Notes: generated by a model not told the origin, from the letters alone. Shown: positions 25,905 through 38,095, numbered from the stretch's first letter. The stretch is 64,000 nucleotides of DNA from Candidatus Methanomethylicia archaeon (GCA_038727515.1 JAVYVS010000003.1:96001-160000); one strand, 5' to 3'. Made by a program: numbers and translations.

Positions 25905-26573
25905 TTGGAGAAAGTTATGATAGCATCTTTGTTTAGCGGTGGAAAGGATTCGATATTTTCAATATATTATGCTTTAAATCAAGGATTAGAAGTAAAATAT
26001 CTAATAACCGTAAAAGCAAAAGAAGATTCAATGTATTGGCATTACCAGAATATTGAATGGACAAAATTACAGGCAGAAGCTATGGGGATACCACTTGTAG
26101 AGATACCTAATGAAGACTCATTAAAAATAATACTAGAAAAAATGAAGAGGGAAAGAGAAATATTTGGATTGCTTTCAGGAGTAGTATATTCTGATTTCCA
26201 AAGAGATTACTTAATTAAAGTTTGTAAAGAAGTTGGATTAAAACTGATTACACCGCTTTGGATGAAAAATCCAATAAAACTATTGGAGAAAATTGTAGAA
26301 TGTAAAATTCACGCAATAATAGTTTTTGTGGCTGCAGAAGGATTAAATCAAGAATGGTTAGGGGTTGAAATAAATCGAGAAGTCATAAATAAGTTGATTG
26401 AAAAAAACAAAAAGTATGGAATAAGTATATGTGGGGAAGGGGGAGAATATGAGACTTTTGTGTATGATGCCCCGTTTTTCAATAAAAGAATAGAAATAAG
26501 GGAAATGGAAAAGATCTGGATGAAAGATCGAGGATTATTAAAAATTAAAAGTGCAGAATTAACTAGTAAATAA
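25905..26573 (+). CDS. diphthine--ammonia ligase / PP-loop ATPase (Dph6 family)
   Basis: FSGGKDS, CGEGGEYETFV. Confidence 0.88.
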   Translation: MEKVMIASLFSGGKDSIFSIYYALNQGLEVKYLITVKAKEDSMYWHYQNIEWTKLQAEAMGIPLVEIPNEDSLKIILEKMKREREIFGLLSGVVYSDFQRDYLIKVCKEVGLKLITPLWMKNPIKLLEKIVECKIHAIIVFVAAEGLNQEWLGVEINREVINKLIEKNKKYGISICGEGGEYETFVYDAPFFNKRIEIREMEKIWMKDRGLLKIKSAELTSK

Positions 26574-27863
26574 ATCTAAACAAGTTTGTTCGAATTCTTC
26601 ATAAACTTTCTGTTCATTAACTTTAGTTAAAACACCATTAAAAAGAACTATCTCCCCATCTATAATCACATGTGATATATTAATGGGAGAGATATCAGCA
26701 TAAACAAGATGGGATATAATATTCTCCTCAAATAGAGGGAAAACATTTGGGTTACGTGTATTTAAAATTACTATATCTGCCGGACCATTTTCAACGATTT
26801 TACCTATAGAATTAACATAATTTGTTGCTGCAGCACCATTTATAGTTCCAAAATTAAAAACGAGTGGAGCTGGTGCTATTGAAGGGTCAAGAGAATGATG
26901 TTTATGTATTAGTGCACAGAATTTCATTACATCAAACATATTTAAGGAATTATTACTTGCAGCACTATCAGTTCCTAAACTTATTATCACGTTGTTTTTT
27001 AAACATTCATCTAAAGGTAAAACGCCACCAACAGCCAATTTCATATTGGATATAGGGCAATGTGATATCTTTACCCCATTTTTCCCAAGTAAACGAATTT
27101 CATTTTTACTAAGCCATACGCAATGAACAGCAACAACATTAGGTGATAGAAAACCAATATCATCCAAATATTCAACTTCACGTTTACCATATTTCTCTTT
27201 GAACTCAGATTGTTCCTCCATAGTTTCAGCTATATGTATTTGTAGTAATCTTCCCTCTTTATCAGCAATATCTTTACACTTCATTAATAATTCATTGGAG
27301 CAAGTATATGGTGCATGGGGACCTATAGCCCCAATAATTTTAGGTTCATACTTTTTCACATCATTTAAAAAAGAGTTAATAAAATGAATCATATGATCCC
27401 TCATGGCAGAATCTCCAAAATCAAAAACCCCTATTGAAACTATGGCTTTTAACCCAACTTCTGCAGCTGCTTTCACACACATCATTGGATTAAGATACAT
27501 ATCCCAAAAAAGTGTAGTTCCACTTTTAATCATTTCAATGCAGGAAAGTAGAGAACCAATATAGTAATCTTTTTCTTTAAGTTTCTTCTCCATAGGCCAT
27601 ATCTTATCATTCAACCATGTTTTAAGCGGCAAATCATCAGCATAACCTCTAAATATTGACATTGCAGCATGGGTATGCGTATTTATTAACCCAGGAATAC
27701 AAATGTTTTCTCTACAATCTATTGTATACTCCGCTTCAACCCCTATCCTTTCGGATAATTCAACTACTCTGCCATCTTCAATAAACATGGAGGTATTTTT
27801 TAAAATTTTACCTTTATCCTGCGTAATAATAAATTTGCAGTTTTTTAATTTTATGCTGCCCAA
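26559..27863 (-). CDS. amidohydrolase, MTA/SAH deaminase-like
   Basis: NTHTH, GPHAPYTC, HIAET, SNMKL, LGTDSAASNN. Confidence 0.88.
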   Translation of the reverse strand: MGSIKLKNCKFIITQDKGKILKNTSMFIEDGRVVELSERIGVEAEYTIDCRENICIPGLINTHTHAAMSIFRGYADDLPLKTWLNDKIWPMEKKLKEKDYYIGSLLSCIEMIKSGTTLFWDMYLNPMMCVKAAAEVGLKAIVSIGVFDFGDSAMRDHMIHFINSFLNDVKKYEPKIIGAIGPHAPYTCSNELLMKCKDIADKEGRLLQIHIAETMEEQSEFKEKYGKREVEYLDDIGFLSPNVVAVHCVWLSKNEIRLLGKNGVKISHCPISNMKLAVGGVLPLDECLKNNVIISLGTDSAASNNSLNMFDVMKFCALIHKHHSLDPSIAPAPLVFNFGTINGAAATNYVNSIGKIVENGPADIVILNTRNPNVFPLFEENIISHLVYADISPINISHVIIDGEIVLFNGVLTKVNEQKVYEEFEQTCLDLFTS

Positions 27864-27887
27864 AATTTGGCACCCAATAATTTAAAT

Positions 27888-28289
27888 TTATTTTACCCGA
27901 ATAATCTTTTTCCTACCCATGATTTCCCAATATTCAACTTCAACTCCTGAAGTAAGTTTATCCTTCAATTCAGGTTCTTCAGGGGTGGGGACATCAAATA
28001 TTTCATAGCTTGACAAATCCATTAGTTGTATAGATGAAGAAGAGACAGAGATTACTTGTCCCACTTTTTTTTCAATTATAGGTACTTCAACTTGCGCATC
28101 GGCAGGACCAACATATGACCGTTTTTTACCATCGAAAATCCCTAAAGCGACTATTCTCACTTTGGCAGAACCATGTTTCCCAGCCTTTGATTTATCTATA
28201 CTAACTATCTTGCAAGGTTCATCATCAATAATAATAAACGACCCTACTTTTAGTGAACCTGCTTCTTCAGGCCTCTTCAAAACAGACAC
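27888..28289 (-). CDS. eif5a: translation factor aIF-5A
   Basis: Hypusine loop KAGKHGSAK. Confidence 0.97.
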   Translation of the reverse strand: MSVLKRPEEAGSLKVGSFIIIDDEPCKIVSIDKSKAGKHGSAKVRIVALGIFDGKKRSYVGPADAQVEVPIIEKKVGQVISVSSSSIQLMDLSSYEIFDVPTPEEPELKDKLTSGVEVEYWEIMGRKKIIRVK

Positions 28290-28367
28290 CTAACACATTA
28301 TTGAAATCTCTTCTTAAAAATATTTACATTTATATTTTAAGGTAAAATACTTATTAGGAAGAAACAT

Positions 28368-29249
28368 ATGAATGAACTTAAAAGGATACTAATAACTGCA
28401 AGGATAGATTCTGAAAGAGCAATAAATATATCCAGTAAAATATATGAAATGCTGTCTTTAATGGATTTTGAAACATTATTGGAAAGAGAATTAGCATGGA
28501 AATTGAATCTTAAAGGAGGAGTATCTATAAGAGACGTTGATGTAGATGCAGTCATAGTTGTCGGGGGAGATGGAACAATTTTAAAAGTTGCAAATGAAGT
28601 AAAAGAAAGAGGAATCCCAATATTATCCGTAAATGCAGGAACGGTAGGATTTCTCTCAGAATTGGATCCTGAAGAAATATATAAAATACCGGAGGTATTA
28701 AGTGGAAAATATACCATAAAGGAGTGTACAAGAGTAAAAGCAACCATAAAAAGCTTTTTCACTAAAAATCAAGTGATAAAAAATGCAGAAGAAATTTATC
28801 CAGTAAAGGACGCATTAAATGAAATAACCGTTATAACAAGTATACCATCGAAAGTAATAAATCTAGAGGTAAGAGTTGAGGATGAAGAATTATTTAGTGG
28901 TAGAGGTGACGGAATAATAATATCAACTACAACTGGAGCTACAGCATATTCGTTATCTGCAGGTGGACCAATAGTGGACCCTGCACTTGATGTTTTTATA
29001 ATTACAATGCTTTCACCATTGAGTCTAATCAATAGATCAATAATAGTACCTGTAAACTCCAAAATAGAGGTAAGAGTATGTGATGATGGTGTTGACGCCT
29101 ATATGTCTACAGATGGAAGAGACCATATATTTATACCGGCTGGAACAAACATATTGTTCGAGAAAAGTGAGTTTAAAACAAAGATTATATGTACAAAGGA
29201 GAAAGATTTTTATAAAAAGTTAAAAAGAAGGCTGAAAAGGGAGTTATGA
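28368..29249 (+). CDS. nadK: NAD(+) kinase
   Basis: GGDGTIL, GTVGFL, LNE, TTTGATAYSLSAGGP. Confidence 0.95.
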   Translation: MNELKRILITARIDSERAINISSKIYEMLSLMDFETLLERELAWKLNLKGGVSIRDVDVDAVIVVGGDGTILKVANEVKERGIPILSVNAGTVGFLSELDPEEIYKIPEVLSGKYTIKECTRVKATIKSFFTKNQVIKNAEEIYPVKDALNEITVITSIPSKVINLEVRVEDEELFSGRGDGIIISTTTGATAYSLSAGGPIVDPALDVFIITMLSPLSLINRSIIVPVNSKIEVRVCDDGVDAYMSTDGRDHIFIPAGTNILFEKSEFKTKIICTKEKDFYKKLKRRLKREL

Positions 29250-29250
29250 A

Positions 29251-29754
29251 ATGGAAAAAATTATAGTTTTAGATACATCAGCAATAATAAATGGATATAA
29301 TCCACTATTAATGATTGGAAATAGGCAAGTGATATCTATCGACGCATTAAATGAAATCATACAGGAAGATAAAAGAAAGATAGTTGAGGAAGCTTTAGAA
29401 ATAAAAAGATTAGAAAAAATAAATCCTGAAGAAAAGTTTATAATAAAGGCAGAGGAAATTGCAAAAGAAACTAATGACATAAAGTATCTCTCCAAAAGCG
29501 ACATTTCAACAATAGCATTAGCATTAGAATTAAAGGAAAAGGGGTTTGAACCGATAATAATAACTGATGATTTCTCAATCCAAAACGTGATAAAGTTTTT
29601 AGGATTAAAATATGCTCCAATGGCAACAAGAGGTATAAGGAAACTGATAAAGTGGAAGTTATATTGTCCTGCTTGCGGAAGGAAATATAATGGTGAAAAG
29701 TTAAATGAATGTTTAGTGTGTGGAGTAAAATTAAAACGAAAACCTATACTTTAA
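29251..29754 (+). CDS. nob1: Nob1 endoribonuclease (PIN + Zn ribbon)
   Basis: VLDTSA, LSKSD, TDDFSIQNV, CPAC/CLVC. Confidence 0.92.
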   Translation: MEKIIVLDTSAIINGYNPLLMIGNRQVISIDALNEIIQEDKRKIVEEALEIKRLEKINPEEKFIIKAEEIAKETNDIKYLSKSDISTIALALELKEKGFEPIIITDDFSIQNVIKFLGLKYAPMATRGIRKLIKWKLYCPACGRKYNGEKLNECLVCGVKLKRKPIL

Positions 29755-30931
29755 CAAATTTAGCTATAAAAAATCCAGGAGTATCATGTTCATCTGGGTA
29801 AAAACGTTGAAGTAAATTGTAGTTAGGCATAATCTCTAAACCCCGTGAACCGAGATATAAGATTTGAGTATCTAATTCTAATGGATAATTTTCTAAGGCG
29901 TATTTCACTATCAATTCATTTTCATCAGGAGTTATAGTGCATGTTGAATAAACAAGAACACCACCTTTCTTAAGAATTTCTGTAGCTGATTTAAAGAATT
30001 GCATTTGATACTTTGCACAAGCTAAGATATCCTTAACTGACTTACGTTCAAATAATTTAGGTCTAACACCCAAGGCAGAACATGGTGGATCCAATAAGAC
30101 TTTATCAGCTTTCAAATAAGGATAGTCTATGTGAAGATACCTAGAATCAGCAAACACAACATTTACATTTTTTACGCCTAATCTTTCAATATTCTCCTTT
30201 AATTTGTTTAATTTAGAGATAGAATTATCGAAAGCATATATTTTAGCATTATTGGAAGTTAGTTGTGCTATATGAGTCGTTTTTCCGCCAGGAGCTGCAC
30301 ACATATCAACTATAACTTCTCCTGGATTAGATTCCAATATTATGCTTGTTAGCATTGCAGGTATACTTTGTTCATATATTTTACCCTGATTATATTCATC
30401 TAAGTTTCTAATCGGAGCGCTATGATAAACAGATTCTAAAACTTTTACAGCGATGCCTTTTCTATTACTGAAAATCTCTTTTTCATCTTGCATGGCAATA
30501 CCATTTGCTATTAAGTATCCTCTTTCATCAGTTATAGTAACCAAATCTCCCTTCTTAACGTTTTCAGCAGATAAAACCCCTGGAGCATATAAATCTGCCC
30601 CTATATAAACACTTTCCGCGGCATTTTTATCGGCAATAACGATCTTACCTTTTTTGCAGATTTTAAATGGTCCTTTCAATTTAATTAGTAAAGCCTCATT
30701 TAACTTTGGGTGATATAATACATCTATTCCCTTTTTCTCTAGAGAATTATATACTTCATCAACATCCGCCTTTAATGTGTTTACACGAATAGAATAAAAT
30801 TTTGGTGGTAATGTTAAATAGGTAATTATAGATTTTAACTTTGTAAAATTGAAGAAATTACTTAAGTAGGAAAGTATATCTTTAGGAAAGCCGCTAGTCT
30901 CAGAAAGCTTATTTATATCTTCCTCAGACAT
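29744..30931 (-). CDS. RsmB/NOP2 family m5C RNA methyltransferase with PUA domain (NSun6-like)
   Basis: GADLYAPGV (PUA), DMCAAPGGKT, DPPCS, YSTCT. Confidence 0.92.
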   Translation of the reverse strand: MSEEDINKLSETSGFPKDILSYLSNFFNFTKLKSIITYLTLPPKFYSIRVNTLKADVDEVYNSLEKKGIDVLYHPKLNEALLIKLKGPFKICKKGKIVIADKNAAESVYIGADLYAPGVLSAENVKKGDLVTITDERGYLIANGIAMQDEKEIFSNRKGIAVKVLESVYHSAPIRNLDEYNQGKIYEQSIPAMLTSIILESNPGEVIVDMCAAPGGKTTHIAQLTSNNAKIYAFDNSISKLNKLKENIERLGVKNVNVVFADSRYLHIDYPYLKADKVLLDPPCSALGVRPKLFERKSVKDILACAKYQMQFFKSATEILKKGGVLVYSTCTITPDENELIVKYALENYPLELDTQILYLGSRGLEIMPNYNLLQRFYPDEHDTPGFFIAKFVKV

Positions 30932-30960: not shown

Positions 30961-32367
30961 TTAAAATGTCTTCTTGGGGTAACGTATAATAGAATTCATA
31001 TTTTCAATGTAAATTTCAAGTATAAGTGGAAATTCATAGGTATGTGTTGCACATGATAAACATGGATCATAGTTTCTTATCAATTTTGAAATTTCACTAT
31101 ACAATCGTTCTTCTGATAATCCTTCTTTTGAAATTATGCTTTCAGATATAGCTGCTATCTCTTTCTCTATGACTGGAATATTTTGTACTGTAGCAACTAT
31201 TAGATTTGCATCGCAAATATATCCTTCATTGTCAACTTTATAGTAATGAATTAACGTTCCCCTTGGAGCTTCTATAACGCCTAAACCTTCATTATTTTTA
31301 ACCCTAAGATTTTTCTGAGGAAGAGAAGGTTCTTGAATACATTTATTATTTAAAATTTCAAACATTTTATCTAAGACATATACTATTTCTGCAACTCTGA
31401 TTATGTTATAGTAATTTGATGTCAATAGGGGTCGTGACCTATTTGATAGAAATCTTTTAACAAATGCTTCAGAATTTTCAGAGTCAAAAATATCATTTAC
31501 GTTAAATCTTGCTAAAGGACCAACTCTATAATAACCATAATTTAAAATGTATGGTGTTTTTGTATAACTCCAAGGAGTGTCTTTCTCACAAATACTTTTA
31601 AGACACTCATTGTACTTGAAAAAAGTTAGTAATTCACCATGTTGAGAAATAACACGAATATCATCTGAATGATAAAGTGGATATGTTGAATTAGAATATA
31701 GTGCTACAAAATTGCTAGGTACATATACATCATAATCTTCAAGTATAACGGTTAATTTGTCTTCAATATTATCAATAATCTCTTTAATCATTTTTATTGA
31801 ATTAATTGATTTTTCTTGCAATTCAAGTTGTTGAGAAGGCTTTATTGAATTAAGAAAACCTCCGGGTATTGCTCCAGAGGGATGAACAGATGAACCCCCA
31901 AGTATTTCTATAACTTGTCTTGCAAAATCCCTTATTTCTAAAATTTGCTTAACCAATGATGGATAATGTTTTACCATTCCAAGAAATCCTGGATTTTTGT
32001 CACATTCTCTAAATAGGATATCGGGTAGGTATAGTATGAAAAAGTGTAGAATGTGACTATGTAGTATTCCAGCAAAATGAAGTAATTCCCTCAATTTTAA
32101 AGCATTTTCTTTTATTGTTAATCCAAAAATATCATCTAATGCTTTTACTGAAGCTAAATGATGAGATGGAGAGCAAAGTCCACAAATCCTTGGAACTATT
32201 AAAGGGGCTTCCTCGATAGGTCTATTTATAAGTAGTTTTTCAAATCCCCTAAACTCAGTAACTTGAAGATATGAGTTTAAAACTTTACCATCATTGCTTA
32301 CGAAAAGCGATACTTTAGCATGCCCTTCTATTCTCGTTATTGGTTTAAAAATTAATTTTCTACTCAT
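30961..32367 (-). CDS. mvhA: [NiFe]-hydrogenase large subunit, group 3c-like
   Basis: TRIEGH, L1 PRICGLC, EAPRG, L2 DPCLSCATH plus C-terminal extension. Confidence 0.9.
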   Translation of the reverse strand: MSRKLIFKPITRIEGHAKVSLFVSNDGKVLNSYLQVTEFRGFEKLLINRPIEEAPLIVPRICGLCSPSHHLASVKALDDIFGLTIKENALKLRELLHFAGILHSHILHFFILYLPDILFRECDKNPGFLGMVKHYPSLVKQILEIRDFARQVIEILGGSSVHPSGAIPGGFLNSIKPSQQLELQEKSINSIKMIKEIIDNIEDKLTVILEDYDVYVPSNFVALYSNSTYPLYHSDDIRVISQHGELLTFFKYNECLKSICEKDTPWSYTKTPYILNYGYYRVGPLARFNVNDIFDSENSEAFVKRFLSNRSRPLLTSNYYNIIRVAEIVYVLDKMFEILNNKCIQEPSLPQKNLRVKNNEGLGVIEAPRGTLIHYYKVDNEGYICDANLIVATVQNIPVIEKEIAAISESIISKEGLSEERLYSEISKLIRNYDPCLSCATHTYEFPLILEIYIENMNSIIRYPKKTF

Positions 32368-33277
32368 AATTTTTAACCTCTCTTTTTATTGAAAATAATT
32401 TGGAGGATGGAAGAGTAAACCTATACAAAAGACCTGTTAAGTCTCTAATAGTTTTTAATTTTTCTATATTGTTGACATCATAAGATGCAGCTGATGCTAA
32501 AGATGACAAAAATTTAAATGCCGCTTCATCGATTCCATTTAGAGGCCCTAAACACCCTCTACAAGGAGTATTGGATTTTATACATCTAGCATCACAACCA
32601 CTTAAGGTTACAGGCCCTAAACATAAAACGCCTTGTTCTAAAAAACAGTGATTTAAATCCACTGGTTGTAAAGAGAATCTTTTTATGTCCTTTACTAACT
32701 TATTTTCTCCAGTATTCAATGGACACTCCATGCATAAACTTTTGTTTGACAATTTAAACGGTGCATCTCCAGTTAAACTGTTAAGTAAATTAAGAATAAT
32801 CTTTCTAGGAGGGGGACATCCTGGAACTGCCATATCTATCTTTACAAGCTCATGTAATGGTCGTATGTACTCAGATAATTTTGGTAGGTCATATTCTTCA
32901 GAAATTAAATCTTTGTTGCAACCATACACATCTTTTAAAACATTAGATATATTCAGTATATTTAACAATCCTGGTAAACCGCCATAACAAGAACAACTTC
33001 CAAAAGCGATAAGTATTTTGCTTTTCATCCTCCATTTCAATAGTTTATCATAATCTTCTAATAACCGCAAACTACCAGTTACAATTCCCACATCTACATT
33101 AGCAGGTTCTTCAAAATCTGTGAGTAATGGCGAGTACACTATATCAATAATATCTTCAGTTAAATTATCAGAAAGAAGCCTCAATATGTCAAGTATGGCA
33201 TTTTCACATCCACTACACGTTGTTAATGGAAAGAAAGCCACAGAAAGCTTTTTATGATGCATATTACCACCCACCAA
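32360..33277 (-). CDS. mvhG: [NiFe]-hydrogenase small subunit
   Basis: CSGC, GSC, PGCPP, CMEC, CLGPVT..GC...C.....PCRGC. Confidence 0.9.
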   Translation of the reverse strand: MVGGNMHHKKLSVAFFPLTTCSGCENAILDILRLLSDNLTEDIIDIVYSPLLTDFEEPANVDVGIVTGSLRLLEDYDKLLKWRMKSKILIAFGSCSCYGGLPGLLNILNISNVLKDVYGCNKDLISEEYDLPKLSEYIRPLHELVKIDMAVPGCPPPRKIILNLLNSLTGDAPFKLSNKSLCMECPLNTGENKLVKDIKRFSLQPVDLNHCFLEQGVLCLGPVTLSGCDARCIKSNTPCRGCLGPLNGIDEAAFKFLSSLASAASYDVNNIEKLKTIRDLTGLLYRFTLPSSKLFSIKREVKNYE

Positions 33278-33680
33278 TGGAAAATAGGGGCCCCATCTTA
33301 GTTATTCTATCAACAAAGTTATTAACAATAGAGGAAAAACGATCTCCTTCACCGGCAGAAGCCCAATCTATATGTAATCGATCTGGATTAATTCCAATTT
33401 CACTTAGGAGTTTTTTAACAAGTACAACTTTTGCCTTAGCTTTGTAATTCCCATTTATATAATGACAGTCGCCGGGGTGACAACCCACAATTAATACACC
33501 GTCAGCACCATTAAGAAATGCAGACATGATATTTATTGGATCAACACGACCACTACACATTACACGTATAATTCTTAAATTTACCTTATATAGTCTTCTT
33601 AAATTACCGGCTAAATCAGCAGCTGCGTATCCGCACCAATTACATAAGAAACCAACTATCTTTGGCTTAAATTCAAGCAT
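33264..33680 (-). CDS. mvhD: hydrogenase [2Fe-2S] subunit
   Basis: GFLCNWCGY, IRVMCSGRV, GCHPGDCHY. Confidence 0.93.
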   Translation of the reverse strand: MLEFKPKIVGFLCNWCGYAAADLAGNLRRLYKVNLRIIRVMCSGRVDPINIMSAFLNGADGVLIVGCHPGDCHYINGNYKAKAKVVLVKKLLSEIGINPDRLHIDWASAGEGDRFSSIVNNFVDRITKMGPLFSIGGW

Positions 33681-34224
33681 TTGAAAGGATTCTCTTTCCA
33701 TATTCATACCCTTCACGTAGAGCTTTTAAATTTATTTCTTCTAGACCTTTAGGAACGCTGTCAATAATTGCTTTTTCTAAAGCAGAATACGTTACAGCAT
33801 TAGTTACAGCACAAAGTACACCGAGTAGTACTATGTTTGCAACGATCTTTCTACCTATAGATGTTGCAATTCTTGTGGCAGGTACTTTGTATATTTTTAC
33901 ATTATTATTTGGTGGATCCACATCCTTTACAAGATCTTCATCTAAGATTATTATACCATTATCACATACATACTTTTTATAGTAATTGTATGCGTCTTGT
34001 GATAGAACAATCAAAATATTATTTGAAGTTATATATGGATAATCTATTGCTTCATCTGATATTATAACATCAGTTTTAGATCTACTACCTCTAGCTTCGG
34101 GACCATAGGATTCTGTTTGAACAACATTCTTATTATCAAAAATTGCAGAAGCTTTACCTAAAATATACCCAGCAAAAAGAATGCCTTGACCCCCAAGTCC
34201 CGAGATCCTTATTTCCCATTTCAT
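33673..34224 (-). CDS. 2-oxoacid:ferredoxin oxidoreductase gamma subunit
   Basis: GLGGQG, YGPEARG, ANIVLLG. Confidence 0.93.
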   Translation of the reverse strand: MKWEIRISGLGGQGILFAGYILGKASAIFDNKNVVQTESYGPEARGSRSKTDVIISDEAIDYPYITSNNILIVLSQDAYNYYKKYVCDNGIIILDEDLVKDVDPPNNNVKIYKVPATRIATSIGRKIVANIVLLGVLCAVTNAVTYSALEKAIIDSVPKGLEEINLKALREGYEYGKRILSNA

Positions 34225-34229
34225 ATACC

Positions 34230-35102
34230 TTATCCTCCATCAACCAATGACTTTATATCTTTACCACATTGTTCTCTGATTAACTTATAAAGCTCATCTA
34301 CAAATTCTGGTCTATCTCTTTCAACAAATTCACCTACGATTATTTTCTTGTTTAAGTCTATGTCAGCAATTGAAGGATCGATATTATTTTTAATGACACT
34401 GTTATTCAACAAAAATTTCAAAATTTCTGGGGGGTCTCCAAGTTTATTGTATCTTGCATATAAAGTAATGCAGGGAGCTATTACCTCTATAAAAGAGAAC
34501 CCCTTCCTCTGTAAAGCTTTTTTAAAGGTTCTGATCATAGAAAAAGGTTGAGCAATAGTCCATCTTGCTACAAAAGTTGCTCCTGCAGCTGTTGCAAGAG
34601 AAGGTAAATTAAATGGATGTTCAATATTTCCATAAGGTGTTGTTGTAGTTTTTGAATATAATGGAGTTGTTGGACCTACTTGTCCTCCAGTCATACCATA
34701 ATTAAAGTTGTTAATACATATAACTAATAGGTCAATATTTCTTCTTGCAGCATGTATAAAGTGATTTCCACCTATTGCGAATAAATCTCCATCTCCACTA
34801 ATAACACTAACTTTAAGATATGGTTTGGCTATTTTAATACCCATAGCCACAGGGATTGCACGTCCATGAGTAGTATGAAATGAATCTAATGCTACATAAT
34901 TTGCAATTCTACCGCTACAACCTATGCCTGAAACCACGACTACATTGTTTAAATCGATATTGGATTCAAGTAATGCTCTTAAATAACAGTTTAATACTAT
35001 ACCTATTCCACAACCTGGACACCATATATGAGGCAGATGTTCAGATAACAAAAGTGAATCTAAAGTATGCATCTCACTATTTCTGGGTAGCTTAATTGAC
35101 AA
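34230..35102 (-). CDS. 2-oxoacid:ferredoxin oxidoreductase beta subunit
   Basis: WCPGCG, SGIGCS, TPP-binding GDGD...NN, YGMTGGQ. Confidence 0.94.
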   Translation of the reverse strand: MSIKLPRNSEMHTLDSLLLSEHLPHIWCPGCGIGIVLNCYLRALLESNIDLNNVVVVSGIGCSGRIANYVALDSFHTTHGRAIPVAMGIKIAKPYLKVSVISGDGDLFAIGGNHFIHAARRNIDLLVICINNFNYGMTGGQVGPTTPLYSKTTTTPYGNIEHPFNLPSLATAAGATFVARWTIAQPFSMIRTFKKALQRKGFSFIEVIAPCITLYARYNKLGDPPEILKFLLNNSVIKNNIDPSIADIDLNKKIIVGEFVERDRPEFVDELYKLIREQCGKDIKSLVDGG

Positions 35103-36246
35103 GTTTGTTCACCTCGTGTATAAAATCGATCAATTCATCAGGGGTGTGAGGATCACCGCCAATTTTAGGAAAAGAAAACGTAGGCTTCCCCTGAACACTT
35201 CCTTCAACTTCTTTAACTAATTGACCATAATTCATTTCAACAACTATGAAGGCTTTAGCGTACTTTGAATATTCAATAAATAAATGTTTGGGAAAAGGCC
35301 ATATAGTTATCAATCTACATAAACCAACCTTCAACCCTTTTTCTCTACATATTTTCACAGCTCTTAATGCAGACCTAGCTGGTGCACCATATGATACAAC
35401 TATTATCTTAGCATCTTTAGTGAATATCTCATCAAACATCGTAATTTTGTCAATATTAAGTCTAATCTTATCGCATAACCTTTTCACTAAATAACTGTGT
35501 ACATTAGGATCCAATGTTGAAGGAAAACCGGAAAAATCATGTGTCAATCCTGTTACATGAACTTTAAATCCTTCACCAAAACAAGCCATTGGTGGAATGA
35601 GATCTTCATCAGGCATGAATGGTAAATATCCATTTTTAGAATCCTTTTTTGGTTTTTTCCTATTTACTATCTTAACTTCCTCTGGACGTTTTATTATCAC
35701 TTTCTCTCTCATATGACCAATTATTTCATCTGCAAGTAGTATTGTTGGGACCCTAAACCTTTCAGCAAGATTAAAAGCCTCTATCGTTAAATCAAACATT
35801 TCTTGAACTGAAAATGGATAAAGGGCAATAATTTCATAGTCACCATGGCTACCCCATTTTGCTTGCATAATGTCACCTTGTGCAGCTCTAGTTGGCTGTC
35901 CAGTGCTTGGTCCTCCACGCATTACATTTACCACTACTATTGGTGCTTCAACCATAGCAGCCAATCCTATGTTTTCCATCATTAAGCTCATACCAGGACC
36001 ACTTGTAGCGGTCATTGCTTTTACACCAGCATATGATGCTCCTATAATTAATGCTATAGAAGAAAGTTCATCTTCCATTTGCACAAAAGCGCCGCCTACT
36101 TGTGGCAGCCTAAAGGCTAATCTTTCAGCAATTTCTGTAGATGGCGTTATTGGGTAACCAGCAAATAATCTACATCCTGCAACAATAGCTCCTTCAGCGC
36201 ATGCTTCATCTCCTTGCATGAAAAAAGCATTTTGCAAAAATTTCAT
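35092..36246 (-). CDS. 2-oxoacid:ferredoxin oxidoreductase alpha subunit (KorA-like)
   Basis: YPITP, QMEDE, TSGPG, RGGPSTGQPT, EMNYGQ. Confidence 0.94.
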   Translation of the reverse strand: MKFLQNAFFMQGDEACAEGAIVAGCRLFAGYPITPSTEIAERLAFRLPQVGGAFVQMEDELSSIALIIGASYAGVKAMTATSGPGMSLMMENIGLAAMVEAPIVVVNVMRGGPSTGQPTRAAQGDIMQAKWGSHGDYEIIALYPFSVQEMFDLTIEAFNLAERFRVPTILLADEIIGHMREKVIIKRPEEVKIVNRKKPKKDSKNGYLPFMPDEDLIPPMACFGEGFKVHVTGLTHDFSGFPSTLDPNVHSYLVKRLCDKIRLNIDKITMFDEIFTKDAKIIVVSYGAPARSALRAVKICREKGLKVGLCRLITIWPFPKHLFIEYSKYAKAFIVVEMNYGQLVKEVEGSVQGKPTFSFPKIGGDPHTPDELIDFIHEVNKLVN

Positions 36247-36416
36247 AGAGTTTACACTATAAAAACAAATAACAAATAAAGATTAATAAACACTTTCATT
36301 ATTAATTAATAAAAATGCTGAATATCTTATTATCATTATGTGATGTATTAACTATACAAGTGTATAAATGTTAAAAGACTTATGTAAAAGAATTTGTCTT
36401 AAAATGATAAATATAA

Positions 36417-36501
36417 TGCGGGGGGTGGGATTTGAACCCACGAAGGCCTACGCCAACGGATCTTGAGTCCGTCGCCTTTAACCTGGCTCGGCAACCCCCG
36501 C
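36417..36501 (-). tRNA. tRNA-Leu(CAA)
   Basis: GCGGGGG...ACGGA CT CAA GA TCCGT, long variable arm, no intron. Confidence 0.96.
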
Positions 36502-36537: not shown

Positions 36538-37578
36538 TTATTTTTCCAAGATTTTTCGTATATTATGAGGAAATGGAGGTGTAACTATCCCTTTTTCAGT
36601 TATTATTGCAGAGATATACTCTGGGGGTGTCATATCAAATGCGTAATTTAATGCTTTTACACCTTTTGGGGTGATATTATACTTTAACAGCACTTTAGTT
36701 ACTTCATATGGACTTCTTTCTTCTATAATAACATCTTCTTTTCGTGATTGAAAATCGAATGTTGAAATTGGTGCAGCAACATAAAATGGAATATTATGAA
36801 CTTTAGATAGAATGGCAACAGTGTAAGTTCCAATTTTATTGTATACGGTTCCATCGGCTAGAATTCTATCGGCTCCTACGATCACTTTATTTATCTCACC
36901 CTTTTTCATTAAAAAACCAATAGCATTATCAGTTATTAACACTAGAGGTATTTTTTCACGTTTTAACTCAAAAGCTGTAAGTCTTGCACCTTGTAATTGA
37001 GGTCTAGTTTCAGCCACAAAAACCCGTATCTTTTTCCCTTTTTTCCATGCAGATCTTATAACTCCAAGAGCTGTTCCATAATAAACAGTTGCGAGAGAAC
37101 CAGCATTACAATAGGTTAATATTGAATCCCCATCTTCAATTAGTTTCTCACCATTTTCACCTATCCTAATATTGATGTTAACATCTTCATCAGCCATTTT
37201 TAGAGCTTCATTAATTATATCATTTACTATCTCTAAAGAGCTCTTATTTGGATTTATAACATTAAGTATCCTATCGACAGCCCAAAATAGGTTCCTCGCT
37301 GTGGGTCTTGACTCCATTAATTTTTTCGCGGTCTCCTGTATTTTCATTAGAAGGAAGGCTTTTTCTTCATGTGAAAAACTTTTTGCTGTTAATGCAAGAG
37401 CCATAGCTGCTGCTATACCTATAGCTGGGGCCCCCCTTATTTTCATCTTCATGATCGCATCTATTACTTCGTCTGCAGATTTGCATTCCACTATCTTTAG
37501 TTTTTTAGGTAGTAATGTTTGATCAATTATTCTTACTGTACCGTTTACCCATTCAATAGTTTTTGGTAATTTTTGCAT
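36538..37578 (-). CDS. mtnA: S-methyl-5-thioribose-1-phosphate isomerase (eIF-2B-like family)
   Basis: IDQTLLP, RGAPAIG, SRPTA, YCNAGSLAT, ETRP.LQGARLT, NKIGTY. Confidence 0.9.
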   Translation of the reverse strand: MQKLPKTIEWVNGTVRIIDQTLLPKKLKIVECKSADEVIDAIMKMKIRGAPAIGIAAAMALALTAKSFSHEEKAFLLMKIQETAKKLMESRPTARNLFWAVDRILNVINPNKSSLEIVNDIINEALKMADEDVNINIRIGENGEKLIEDGDSILTYCNAGSLATVYYGTALGVIRSAWKKGKKIRVFVAETRPQLQGARLTAFELKREKIPLVLITDNAIGFLMKKGEINKVIVGADRILADGTVYNKIGTYTVAILSKVHNIPFYVAAPISTFDFQSRKEDVIIEERSPYEVTKVLLKYNITPKGVKALNYAFDMTPPEYISAIITEKGIVTPPFPHNIRKILEK

Positions 37579-38095
37579 TTTTAATCACTTCCACTAAGAT
37601 ATCTGAAATTATATTTGCAGCATTATAAATTTCACTAGAAATACTCCTACCAAAGTTTAAATTTTTAGGTTGAATTCCAATAATTACAACCTTTGCTCCA
37701 ACTATTTCTTCTATATATGTAAACAATAACTTTGGTGAAATATTATGAGTGGATGTAGTAATAAAGTCAAATATATCATTTTTTCCAAAAAGACCAATAG
37801 ATCCGGGGCATGAATTCATTTGTACAGCATCTATTAATATTACATGAGAAGGAGATAAATTTTCTAATTTACCGAGGAAAGATTCAGGGGAAGTTTCACA
37901 ATTTAAAATTGTAACAAAATCATCTAGCATTTTAGTTTTCTGAAGTTTCTTTTCTAATAATTCAATGGTCTTTAAACCAGCAGCATCATCACTTCTAAAG
38001 TAATTCCCAATACCCATTATCACAATCTTTTTGGCATCCTTAACAAAAATACTTAAGAGCCTTTTTAAACCATTAATTTCATTTATATCTTTCAT
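37553..38095 (-). CDS. hydrogenase maturation endopeptidase (HycI-like)
   Basis: GIGNYFRSDDAAG, PE, IDA, STH, GIQP. Confidence 0.92.
   Translation of the reverse strand: MKDINEINGLKRLLSIFVKDAKKIVIMGIGNYFRSDDAAGLKTIELLEKKLQKTKMLDDFVTILNCETSPESFLGKLENLSPSHVILIDAVQMNSCPGSIGLFGKNDIFDFITTSTHNISPKLLFTYIEEIVGAKVVIIGIQPKNLNFGRSISSEIYNAANIISDILVEVIKNAKITKNY

Follow-up and report, generated by a model that had tools for sequence, protein, structure and literature searches.

Gene organization and subunit identity of the kor-mvh operon

The present analysis deals with a 64,000-nt stretch of DNA, in the following called the window, from a Candidatus Methanomethylicia archaeon of the order Culexarchaeales (GCA_038727515.1 JAVYVS010000003.1:96001-160000), in which the genes of a three-subunit 2-oxoacid:ferredoxin oxidoreductase (OFOR) are directly followed by those of a [NiFe]-hydrogenase. 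The six genes are arranged in the order korA-korB-korC-mvhD-mvhG-mvhA on the minus strand at positions 30961-36246. The OFOR part comprises korA for the alpha subunit (35092..36246, minus strand, 384 aa; POR_N and PFOR_II in Pfam, PRK08659), korB for the thiamine pyrophosphate-binding beta subunit with one [4Fe-4S] site (34230..35102, minus strand, 290 aa; TPP_enzyme_C) and korC for the gamma subunit (33673..34224, minus strand, 183 aa; POR domain, best NCBIfam match PRK08537). The hydrogenase part comprises mvhD for a [2Fe-2S] adaptor (33264..33716, minus strand; open reading frame (ORF) of 150 aa from a GTG at 33716, FlpD domain), mvhG for the small subunit (32360..33277, minus strand, 305 aa; Oxidored_q6, VhuG) and mvhA for a group 3c-like large subunit (30961..32367, minus strand, 468 aa; NiFeSe_Hases, VhuA). 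According to the ORF list, no two neighbours are separated by more than 5 nt, with overlaps of 11 nt between korA and korB, 14 nt between mvhD and mvhG and 8 nt between mvhG and mvhA, and a gap of 5 nt between korB and korC. A tight row of six co-directional genes in the order alpha-beta-gamma-mvhD-mvhG-mvhA had been proposed in an earlier sequence-only reading of this DNA and was borne out by the ORFs and by the Pfam and NCBIfam assignments. The overlap between korC and mvhD amounts to 8 to 44 nt, according to the mvhD start that is chosen. In the junction sequence, the ATG at 33680 overlaps the korC stop codon TGA as ATGCTTGA, and it is the first ATG that fits the N-terminus of the solved MvhD structures. 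An ATG start within 33680-33707, overlapping the end of korC, is likelier than the GTG at 33716.

KorA was matched by PF01855 (2e-68) and PF17147 (3e-20) and passed the cut-off of NCBIfam PRK08659 (566 bits, cut-off 411 bits), with 1YD7 and 8YS5_A as nearest solved structures. KorB contains PF02775 (9e-36) and aligns with 8YS5_C and, at E ~1e-44 to 1e-46, with 5B48_B and 6N2N_B; the cysteines of its proximal [4Fe-4S] cluster (Cys28/31/62/211) are invariant in 49/49 sequences from all clades, and no extra cysteines are present. KorC contains PF01558 (4e-33). The best family matches of Kor are of the Kor/OGOR type, with only the generic alpha model passing its cut-off and beta and gamma scoring below the equivalog cut-offs. 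For MvhA, MvhG and MvhD the nearest solved relatives are 5ODC_F, 5ODC_E and 5ODC_D, and the best NCBIfam matches are VhuA, VhuG and VhuD, every score being below the equivalog cut-off. MvhD (FlpD, E=2.5e-51) matches 5ODC_D (9e-45) and 9SW2_D (about 1e-45), is aligned from query residue 13 onwards and retains the motifs CNWC, MCSGR and GCHxGDCHY of the [2Fe-2S] site of 5ODC_D. MvhG can be aligned from end to end with 5ODC_E (2e-48), a small subunit with three clusters, and the C-terminal cysteine-rich stretch is included in the match. MvhA (E=5e-88 to 5ODC_F) shows the features expected of a group 3c large subunit, namely an N-terminal RxCGxCxxxH motif, a C-terminal DPCxxCxxH motif and a tail as in subunits that are cleaved there: the nickel-binding motifs read PRICGLCSPSHH and DPCLSCATH, the latter being followed by a C-terminal tail of ~25 residues. 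Judged from these motifs, the cofactor sites of MvhA, MvhG, MvhD and KorB look intact.

Transcription was assessed in one metatranscriptome of a related strain (90-99% identity), which was available as assembled contigs and not as reads. RNA contigs were found over mvhA, mvhG-mvhD, korC-korB, korB-korA and korA at a depth of ~4-10 that was similar for kor and mvh. On the flanks, rsmB and hycI had no RNA contig and mtnA had one short contig; the lack of coverage there hints, though weakly, at a kor-mvh unit.

Conservation within Culexarchaeales and genomic inventory

Among named organisms, the operon has its closest relatives in metagenome-assembled genomes of Candidatus Culexarchaeum and Culexmicrobium, and the DNA runs containing the window are hot-spring metagenomes. 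Of the 12 genomes that represent the species of the order, 10 contain the korABC-mvhDGA arrangement; they belong to three families and eight genera, and in these ten the orthologues of KorC and MvhA lie ~1.3 kb apart on the same strand. One of the two remaining genomes is interrupted by contig ends at this point, and the other is 57% complete and contains neither KorC nor MvhA. The synteny comparison suggested in the sequence-only reading thus returned a conserved arrangement. The korC and mvhD genes overlap or are separated by 4-11 nt in all ten genomes. Among contigs representing one genome per species, korABC-mvhDGA was found with all six best relatives of MvhD; the other MvhDs among the best 80 are encoded beside hdrA or lead mvhGA, with the one exception of a Bathyarchaeia contig (L028) with the order hdrC-hdrB-korD-korABC-hdrA-mvhDGA. 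Sequence divergence within the order (L004-L009) is much faster in the hydrogenase subunits (MvhA 44-66% and MvhG 44-58% identity) than in Kor (61-83%, KorC included) and MvhD (63-77%).

One explanation for this gene order is that no specific coupling exists, and that an ordinary ferredoxin-dependent korABC and an ordinary mvhDGA, the partner of HdrABC, are neighbours through ancestral gene order or co-regulation and share the ferredoxin pool only. We regard this as quite improbable. It agrees with the equally conserved order of the downstream block of an rsmB-like gene, orf167, the NAD kinase gene nadK, orf133 and orf434 (26559-30931), which is kept in most Culexarchaeal loci examined and cut short in three, so that synteny appears to be generally stable in this region. 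Moreover, mvhDGA(B) and hdrA are commonly unlinked in methanogens, and the delta-less Kor of the operon resembles a stand-alone delta-less paralogue in the same genome. KOR and MvhADG-HdrABC were also modelled separately by Kohtz et al. 2022 (PMC9723716). Several observations speak against it: the overlapping reading frames leave no space for separate promoters within the operon, the upstream flank varies between relatives while the kor-mvh junction is constant, and Kor is linked to hdrA-mvhD in varied orders in many unrelated contigs, as described below.

The assembly comprises 1.59 Mb in 12 contigs and is 94% complete, with the kor-mvh operon located on contig C3. No hdr gene was found in the 64-kb window, but two hdrA genes and several hdrB/hdrC genes are present elsewhere. 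The absence of Hdr noted in the sequence-only reading therefore holds for window and operon and does not hold for the genome, which encodes a 655-aa HdrA and an HdrA::MvhD-HdrC-HdrB-TfrB-TfrA cluster. Only two MvhD domains are encoded, namely the free MvhD of the kor-mvh operon and one fused C-terminally to a 796-aa HdrA. The fusion belongs to a locus on contig C2 (290.7-296.7 kb) with the order hdrA::mvhD-hdrC-hdrB-tfrB-like-tfrA-like-gcvH, further genes and then a group 4 hydrogenase. The tfrB-like gene directly 3′ of hdrB encodes a Fer2/Fer4 protein, and the tfrA-like product contains FAD_binding_2 and has TfrA as best NCBIfam match at 310 bits, below the cut-off. The 655-aa HdrA without MvhD is encoded in an etfB-etfA-hdrA-larA-like operon (C2:276-281 kb; L185:7801-12770) that is convergent with an hdrC-hdrB pair, which suggests that it belongs to an Etf-fed system with the lactate-racemase-like protein as a possible partner. 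HdrA is encoded in 11/12 genomes of the order and the hdrA::mvhD-hdrCB-tfrBA locus is kept in at least eight. The split into a kor-mvh and an hdr-tfr locus is likewise found in other genomes of the order, where kor, hdrA, hdrBC and tfrAB do not form one cluster. Within the order, the TfrA proteins of the hdr-tfr locus share 74-90% identity.

Six OFOR alpha genes were counted: the operon Kor, a korABC paralogue on contig C5 (C5:58232-60631; L186:6221-8653), two of the POR/VOR type with a true delta subunit and two of the IOR type. The C5 paralogue is 46-50% identical to the operon Kor, stands alone between genes for a CbiQ-like protein and an ERCC4 nuclease, and is kept in 12/12 genomes of the order. 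It also lacks delta, so that the missing delta subunit, noted for the operon in the sequence-only reading, is not special to it. The genome encodes five [NiFe]-hydrogenase large subunits, and its hydrogenases include membrane-bound group 4 enzymes. With regard to hdrA, mvhD and delta, the genome-wide inventory that had been called for thus yielded two hdrA genes, two MvhD domains and two deltas beside POR/VOR-type alphas.

The lack of a delta or ferredoxin ORF upstream of korA, as previously noted, was confirmed in the ORF list and by direct reading of the sequence. A tblastn search with the KorD of a relative gave no match in this or the related Culexarchaeal kor-mvh loci, and TIGR02179 scored above its cut-off at two sites of the genome only, both beside the POR/VOR-type alphas. 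Two small ferredoxins that stand free in the genome (C1:238.5 kb, C1:663 kb; 43-44% identical to KorD) were considered as displaced delta subunits and rejected as ordinary ferredoxins encoded beside unrelated genes (aminotransferase and thiolase; PGI).

Kor operons of other lineages and the possible coupling of Kor to Mvh

Metagenome contigs were scanned with a KorC alignment and the 80 nearest loci were inspected. Where the contig was long enough, most of these loci were joined to hdrA-mvhD in several orders. The order korDABC-hdrA-mvhDGA was found in six contigs (L028, L112, L117, L126, L129, L133); hdrA-mvhD-korDABC, korDABC-hdrA-mvhD-hdrCB and korDABC-tfrBA-hdrCB-hdrA-mvhD occurred as well, and one contig (L174) carries korDABC-hdrA-mvhDGA-hdrCB-tfrB. 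In L148-L159 (e.g. L153:4729-13819) the order is korDABC-tfrB-tfrA-hdrC-hdrB-hdrA-mvhD, and the slice contains no hydrogenase. The 2.6 kb that follow korC in these contigs are taken up by tfrB-tfrA, whose products share 55-59% identity with TfrBA of the Culexarchaeal genome. For the Kor-linked operons in total, the identity of the genome's TfrB and TfrA to their counterparts is 55-66%. A further group (L109, L110, L122, L131, L147; e.g. L122:2334-7537) has the order hdrA-mvhD-korD-korABC, in which mvhD adjoins korD and no hydrogenase is present in the slice; in these systems MvhD may be an adaptor between HdrA and Kor. All these Hdr-linked kor operons encode a KorD with 2x[4Fe-4S]. Among solved structures, one such KorD (L028:2215-2496) was closest to the FwdF/MvhB polyferredoxin modules from methanogen Hdr-Fwd super-assemblies, with OFOR delta subunits ranking lower, which may be a generic ferredoxin similarity only.

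Trees were calculated from concatenated KorABC, with a careful version of 28 rows, and Kor was divided into two clades. One of them is stand-alone and delta-less and holds the C5 paralogue, while the other (100/100 support) comprises two delta-bearing, Hdr-linked lineages and the Culexarchaeal korABC-mvhDGA lineage. The Kor-linked HdrAs also form one group (25 sequences, support 87). That linked Kor and linked HdrA each have a clade or group of their own argues for long-term selection on their association. Culexarchaeal MvhA forms a separate long-branched clade. A functional link of Kor with MvhD/Mvh is likely because the linkage recurs independently in other lineages. If hdrA and hdrCB-tfrBA are removed from the order found in L174, exactly korABC-mvhDGA remains, korD aside, and the genes thus removed sit together in the same order at the C2 hdr-tfr locus of the genome. 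It is likely that hdrA and korD were lost from an operon that was originally complete.

On this basis, and with modest confidence, we favour the reading that the operon encodes the H2 module and the low-potential 2-oxoacid module of an Mvh-Hdr-Tfr-Kor system whose genes are kept at two loci. It is supported by the position of Kor inside the Hdr-linked clade and by the C2 locus, which holds the genes that are "missing" in comparison with L174. The first module, a [NiFe]-hydrogenase of group 3c type drawing electrons from H2, would consist of MvhAG and the adaptor MvhD, and the second of the three-subunit KorABC, a 2-oxoglutarate-type OFOR working at ferredoxin potential; the electron-splitting core would be encoded by hdrA::mvhD-hdrC-hdrB-tfrB-tfrA at C2. 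MvhAG would oxidize H2, and the electrons would be passed via MvhD to the flavin of HdrA and be bifurcated there. The high-potential electron would be transferred through HdrBC to the soluble fumarate-reductase-like TfrAB for the reduction of fumarate to succinate, and the low-potential electron would reach Kor via ferredoxin or directly for the formation of 2-oxoglutarate from succinyl-CoA and CO2. Due to the lack of a delta subunit, Kor probably exchanges electrons via free ferredoxin and not via a hard-wired relay. The reverse, H2-evolving direction would be possible in peptide fermentation. The gene content, the tight spacing, the conservation and the kinship of Kor with Hdr-linked Kor operons are shown by the sequences, whereas we infer which proteins bind each other, which way the electrons flow and which substrates are used. 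The standard potentials are -414 mV for H2, ~+30 mV for fumarate and ~-500 mV for 2-oxoglutarate synthesis, and with these values the bifurcation toward fumarate and 2-oxoglutarate synthesis is, in sum, exergonic. The sequence-only reading had named an hdrA elsewhere in the genome, as the predicted partner, among the findings that would speak against its proposal; on genomic grounds this is largely what was found, as the same Hdr/Tfr set stands in one operon with kor and mvh in relatives.

A number of points weigh against the two-locus system. The delta subunit, the natural wire to HdrA, is absent from the Kor operon, the HdrA of the Tfr locus already bears its own fused MvhD domain, and the location of the other HdrA in the etfB-etfA-hdrA-larA operon suggests a different electron donor. 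No hdr gene is found in or beside the kor-mvh operon in any of the ten Culexarchaeales genomes, though kor and mvh stay joined. Neither Culexarchaeal HdrA belongs to the Kor-linked HdrA group, both branching just outside it; in the HdrA tree these two paralogues pair on long branches, which is an unreliable placement. In the 28-row tree the three lineages of the 100/100 Kor clade form a trichotomy, so that the loss of hdrA and korD is no more than likely. Since the unrelated downstream block is equally conserved, synteny within the order is by itself weak evidence. No contig bridging the korC/mvhD junction (33637-33753, 115 nt) was found in the one metatranscriptome, for which contigs and not reads were searched. 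Finally, to our knowledge no member of the Kor-Hdr(-Mvh/Flx)-Tfr family has been purified, and the system is known from gene clusters alone.

The same genes could also encode a single complex of KorABC, MvhD and MvhAG that works independently of Hdr and ferredoxin as a 2-oxoacid:H+ oxidoreductase, which we consider doubtful. A dedicated 2-oxoacid:H2 module, possibly wired by MvhD, had been suggested in the sequence-only reading. In such a direct enzyme the [2Fe-2S] cluster of MvhD would replace the lost delta subunit and wire the [4Fe-4S] cluster of KorB to MvhG, and H2 would be evolved from amino-acid-derived 2-oxoacids, or acyl-CoA would be reductively carboxylated at high H2. This model would account for the close spacing of korC and mvhD throughout the ten genomes of three families, never with hdrA nearby, and for the joint absence of delta and hdrA, as predicted for a short circuit that replaces both. 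With one HdrA carrying a fused MvhD and the other lying in an Etf operon, the free MvhD is left without an obligatory Hdr partner. The adjacency of mvhD and korD without a hydrogenase in L109, L122, L131 and L147 is likewise in line with MvhD as a possible general Kor-docking adaptor, and with the above potentials the oxidation of a 2-oxoacid (~-500 mV) to H2 (-414 mV) is downhill.

On the other side, MvhD sits on HdrA in every characterized complex (5ODC, 7BKB, 9SW2), HdrA is encoded in nearly the whole order, and the genome already encodes membrane-bound group 4 hydrogenases to dispose of ferredoxin electrons (genome; PMC9723716). A new interface between Kor and MvhD was searched for by alignment comparison. 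No lineage-specific cysteines were found in Culexarchaeal KorA, KorB or KorC, inserts in KorABC are 1-2 residues at most, and fixed differences amount to 1 to 5 per subunit. MvhD keeps 42 of the 46 columns that are ≥90% conserved in HdrA-adjacent MvhDs, the four changed columns being E to K/R, I to L, R to K and L to I/F, and one position is lineage-specific. No compensating Fe-S site or insert was found in KorABC or MvhD. The retained columns and the lack of new Kor cysteines or inserts thus give no sign of a new interface, and, as far as sequence comparison goes, they fit better with an MvhD that has kept its ancestral role of docking to HdrA than with one that has changed its partner. The direct enzyme, if it existed, would act as a 2-oxoacid hydrogen-lyase or as a 2-oxoacid synthase driven by H2. 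It would provide the first example both of an MvhD that functions apart from HdrA and of an OFOR that is firmly wired to a hydrogenase.

Relation to known systems and flanking features

The published system closest to the two-locus Mvh-Hdr-Tfr-Kor system is the korABCD-tfrAB-hdrABC-flxABCD gene cluster for the reductive tricarboxylic acid (rTCA) cycle in Candidatus Endoriftia and relatives, the tubeworm symbionts, for which expression data are given by Mitchell et al. 2024 (PMC11636981). In the gene-cluster model of Rubin-Blum et al. 2019 (cited in PMC13147460), KorABCD has HdrA on one side and HdrBC on the other, Flx and TfrAB are further members, the complex is fed by NADH and electrons are passed to fumarate reductase and OGOR. 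Shared features are a Kor-type OGOR tied to HdrA/HdrBC, a soluble TfrAB-like reductase and a proposed bifurcation to fumarate and OGOR/ferredoxin, and the Kor, Hdr and TfrAB-like parts of such a cluster are all encoded in the Culexarchaeal genome. The donor would be H2 via the Mvh hydrogenase in the Culexarchaeal case and is NADH via Flx in the Endoriftia cluster; furthermore, the Culexarchaeal Kor lacks delta and the genes are distributed over two loci (kor-mvhDGA; hdr-tfr), unlike the single Endoriftia cluster. The hosts differ as well, the archaeon being from hot springs with a predicted heterotrophic metabolism and the host of the Endoriftia cluster being an rTCA autotroph, and both systems are gene-based proposals.

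The korDABC-hdrA-mvhDGA(-hdrCB-tfrBA) operons of Bathyarchaeia and other uncultured anaerobes (L028, L112, L174) belong to the same Kor clade, with Kor 49-62% identical and the same korABC...mvhD-mvhG-mvhA order. They carry korD, for a protein of 93 aa, before korA and hdrA between korC and mvhD, whereas the Culexarchaeal operon has neither. Clear homologues of MvhA, MvhG and MvhD are found in the methanogen MvhAGD-HdrABC complex (5ODC) and in the Fwd/Fmd super-assemblies (7BKB, 9SW2-9SW6), where Hdr-Fwd provides a solved precedent for a CO2-fixing, ferredoxin-level enzyme attached to Mvh-Hdr. In comparison with that assembly, the CO2-fixing partner would be Kor and not formylmethanofuran dehydrogenase, a polyferredoxin is missing and hdr lies outside the operon. 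Heterodisulfide (coenzyme M/coenzyme B) metabolism is absent from the Culexarchaeal lineage (PMC9723716). A single [4Fe-4S] cluster in beta and the lack of delta are also known from the Sulfolobus tokodaii OFOR (5B46/5B48) and the Magnetococcus OGOR (6N2N). These two-subunit enzymes have gamma fused to alpha and use free ferredoxin, whereas the Culexarchaeal gamma is separate and its operon continues into a hydrogenase.

A literature search for kor-mvh or kor-hdr-mvh linkage returned no description, with nothing on Kor in PMC12054007, PMC9012536 and PMC6046458; only the Endoriftia papers describe a Kor-Hdr cluster, in the Flx version. The co-location of kor and mvh is not mentioned by Kohtz et al. 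2022, the paper describing Culexarchaeia (PMC9723716). Hence, no published description was found for the hdrA-less, delta-less korABC-mvhDGA form, and Flx-containing Kor-Hdr clusters have already been published as gene-cluster models. Kor-Hdr(-Mvh/Flx)-Tfr clusters are widespread in uncultured anaerobes and imply that the low-potential electron of bifurcation feeds an enzyme that forms C-C bonds, while fumarate takes up the high-potential one. In the Culexarchaeal form this system is dissected by nature, as hydrogenase and Kor are joined and HdrA and delta are absent from the operon. It bears on the ability of MvhD to dock to Kor and on the need of Kor for a wired relay, and the metabolic model of Culexarchaeia, with KOR and MvhADG as unrelated enzymes, is corrected by the kor-mvh operon.

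Upstream of korA, an AT-rich spacer of 170 bp (36247..36416, minus strand) without an ORF, seen in the ORF list and by reading of the sequence, is the presumed promoter region, and beyond it lies a tRNA-Leu(CAA) gene (36417-36501). Contigs from one DNA run contained joints from 31471 and 31806 to ~36417, the end of tRNA-Leu(CAA), that skip most of the operon. They were treated as spurious because the matching sides are 23-25 nt long, and are probably artefacts of tRNA genes of other organisms. The hydrogenase maturation protease reported previously at ~1.3 kb distance was recovered as a HycI-type enzyme (37553..38095, minus strand; HycI in Pfam, TIGR00072/TIGR00142) 1.3 kb upstream of korA. 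It may serve Mvh, in a genome with five [NiFe] large subunits, and is encoded near the kor-mvh operon in some relatives only. At the other end, the rsmB-like methyltransferase gene begins 30 bp past mvhA.

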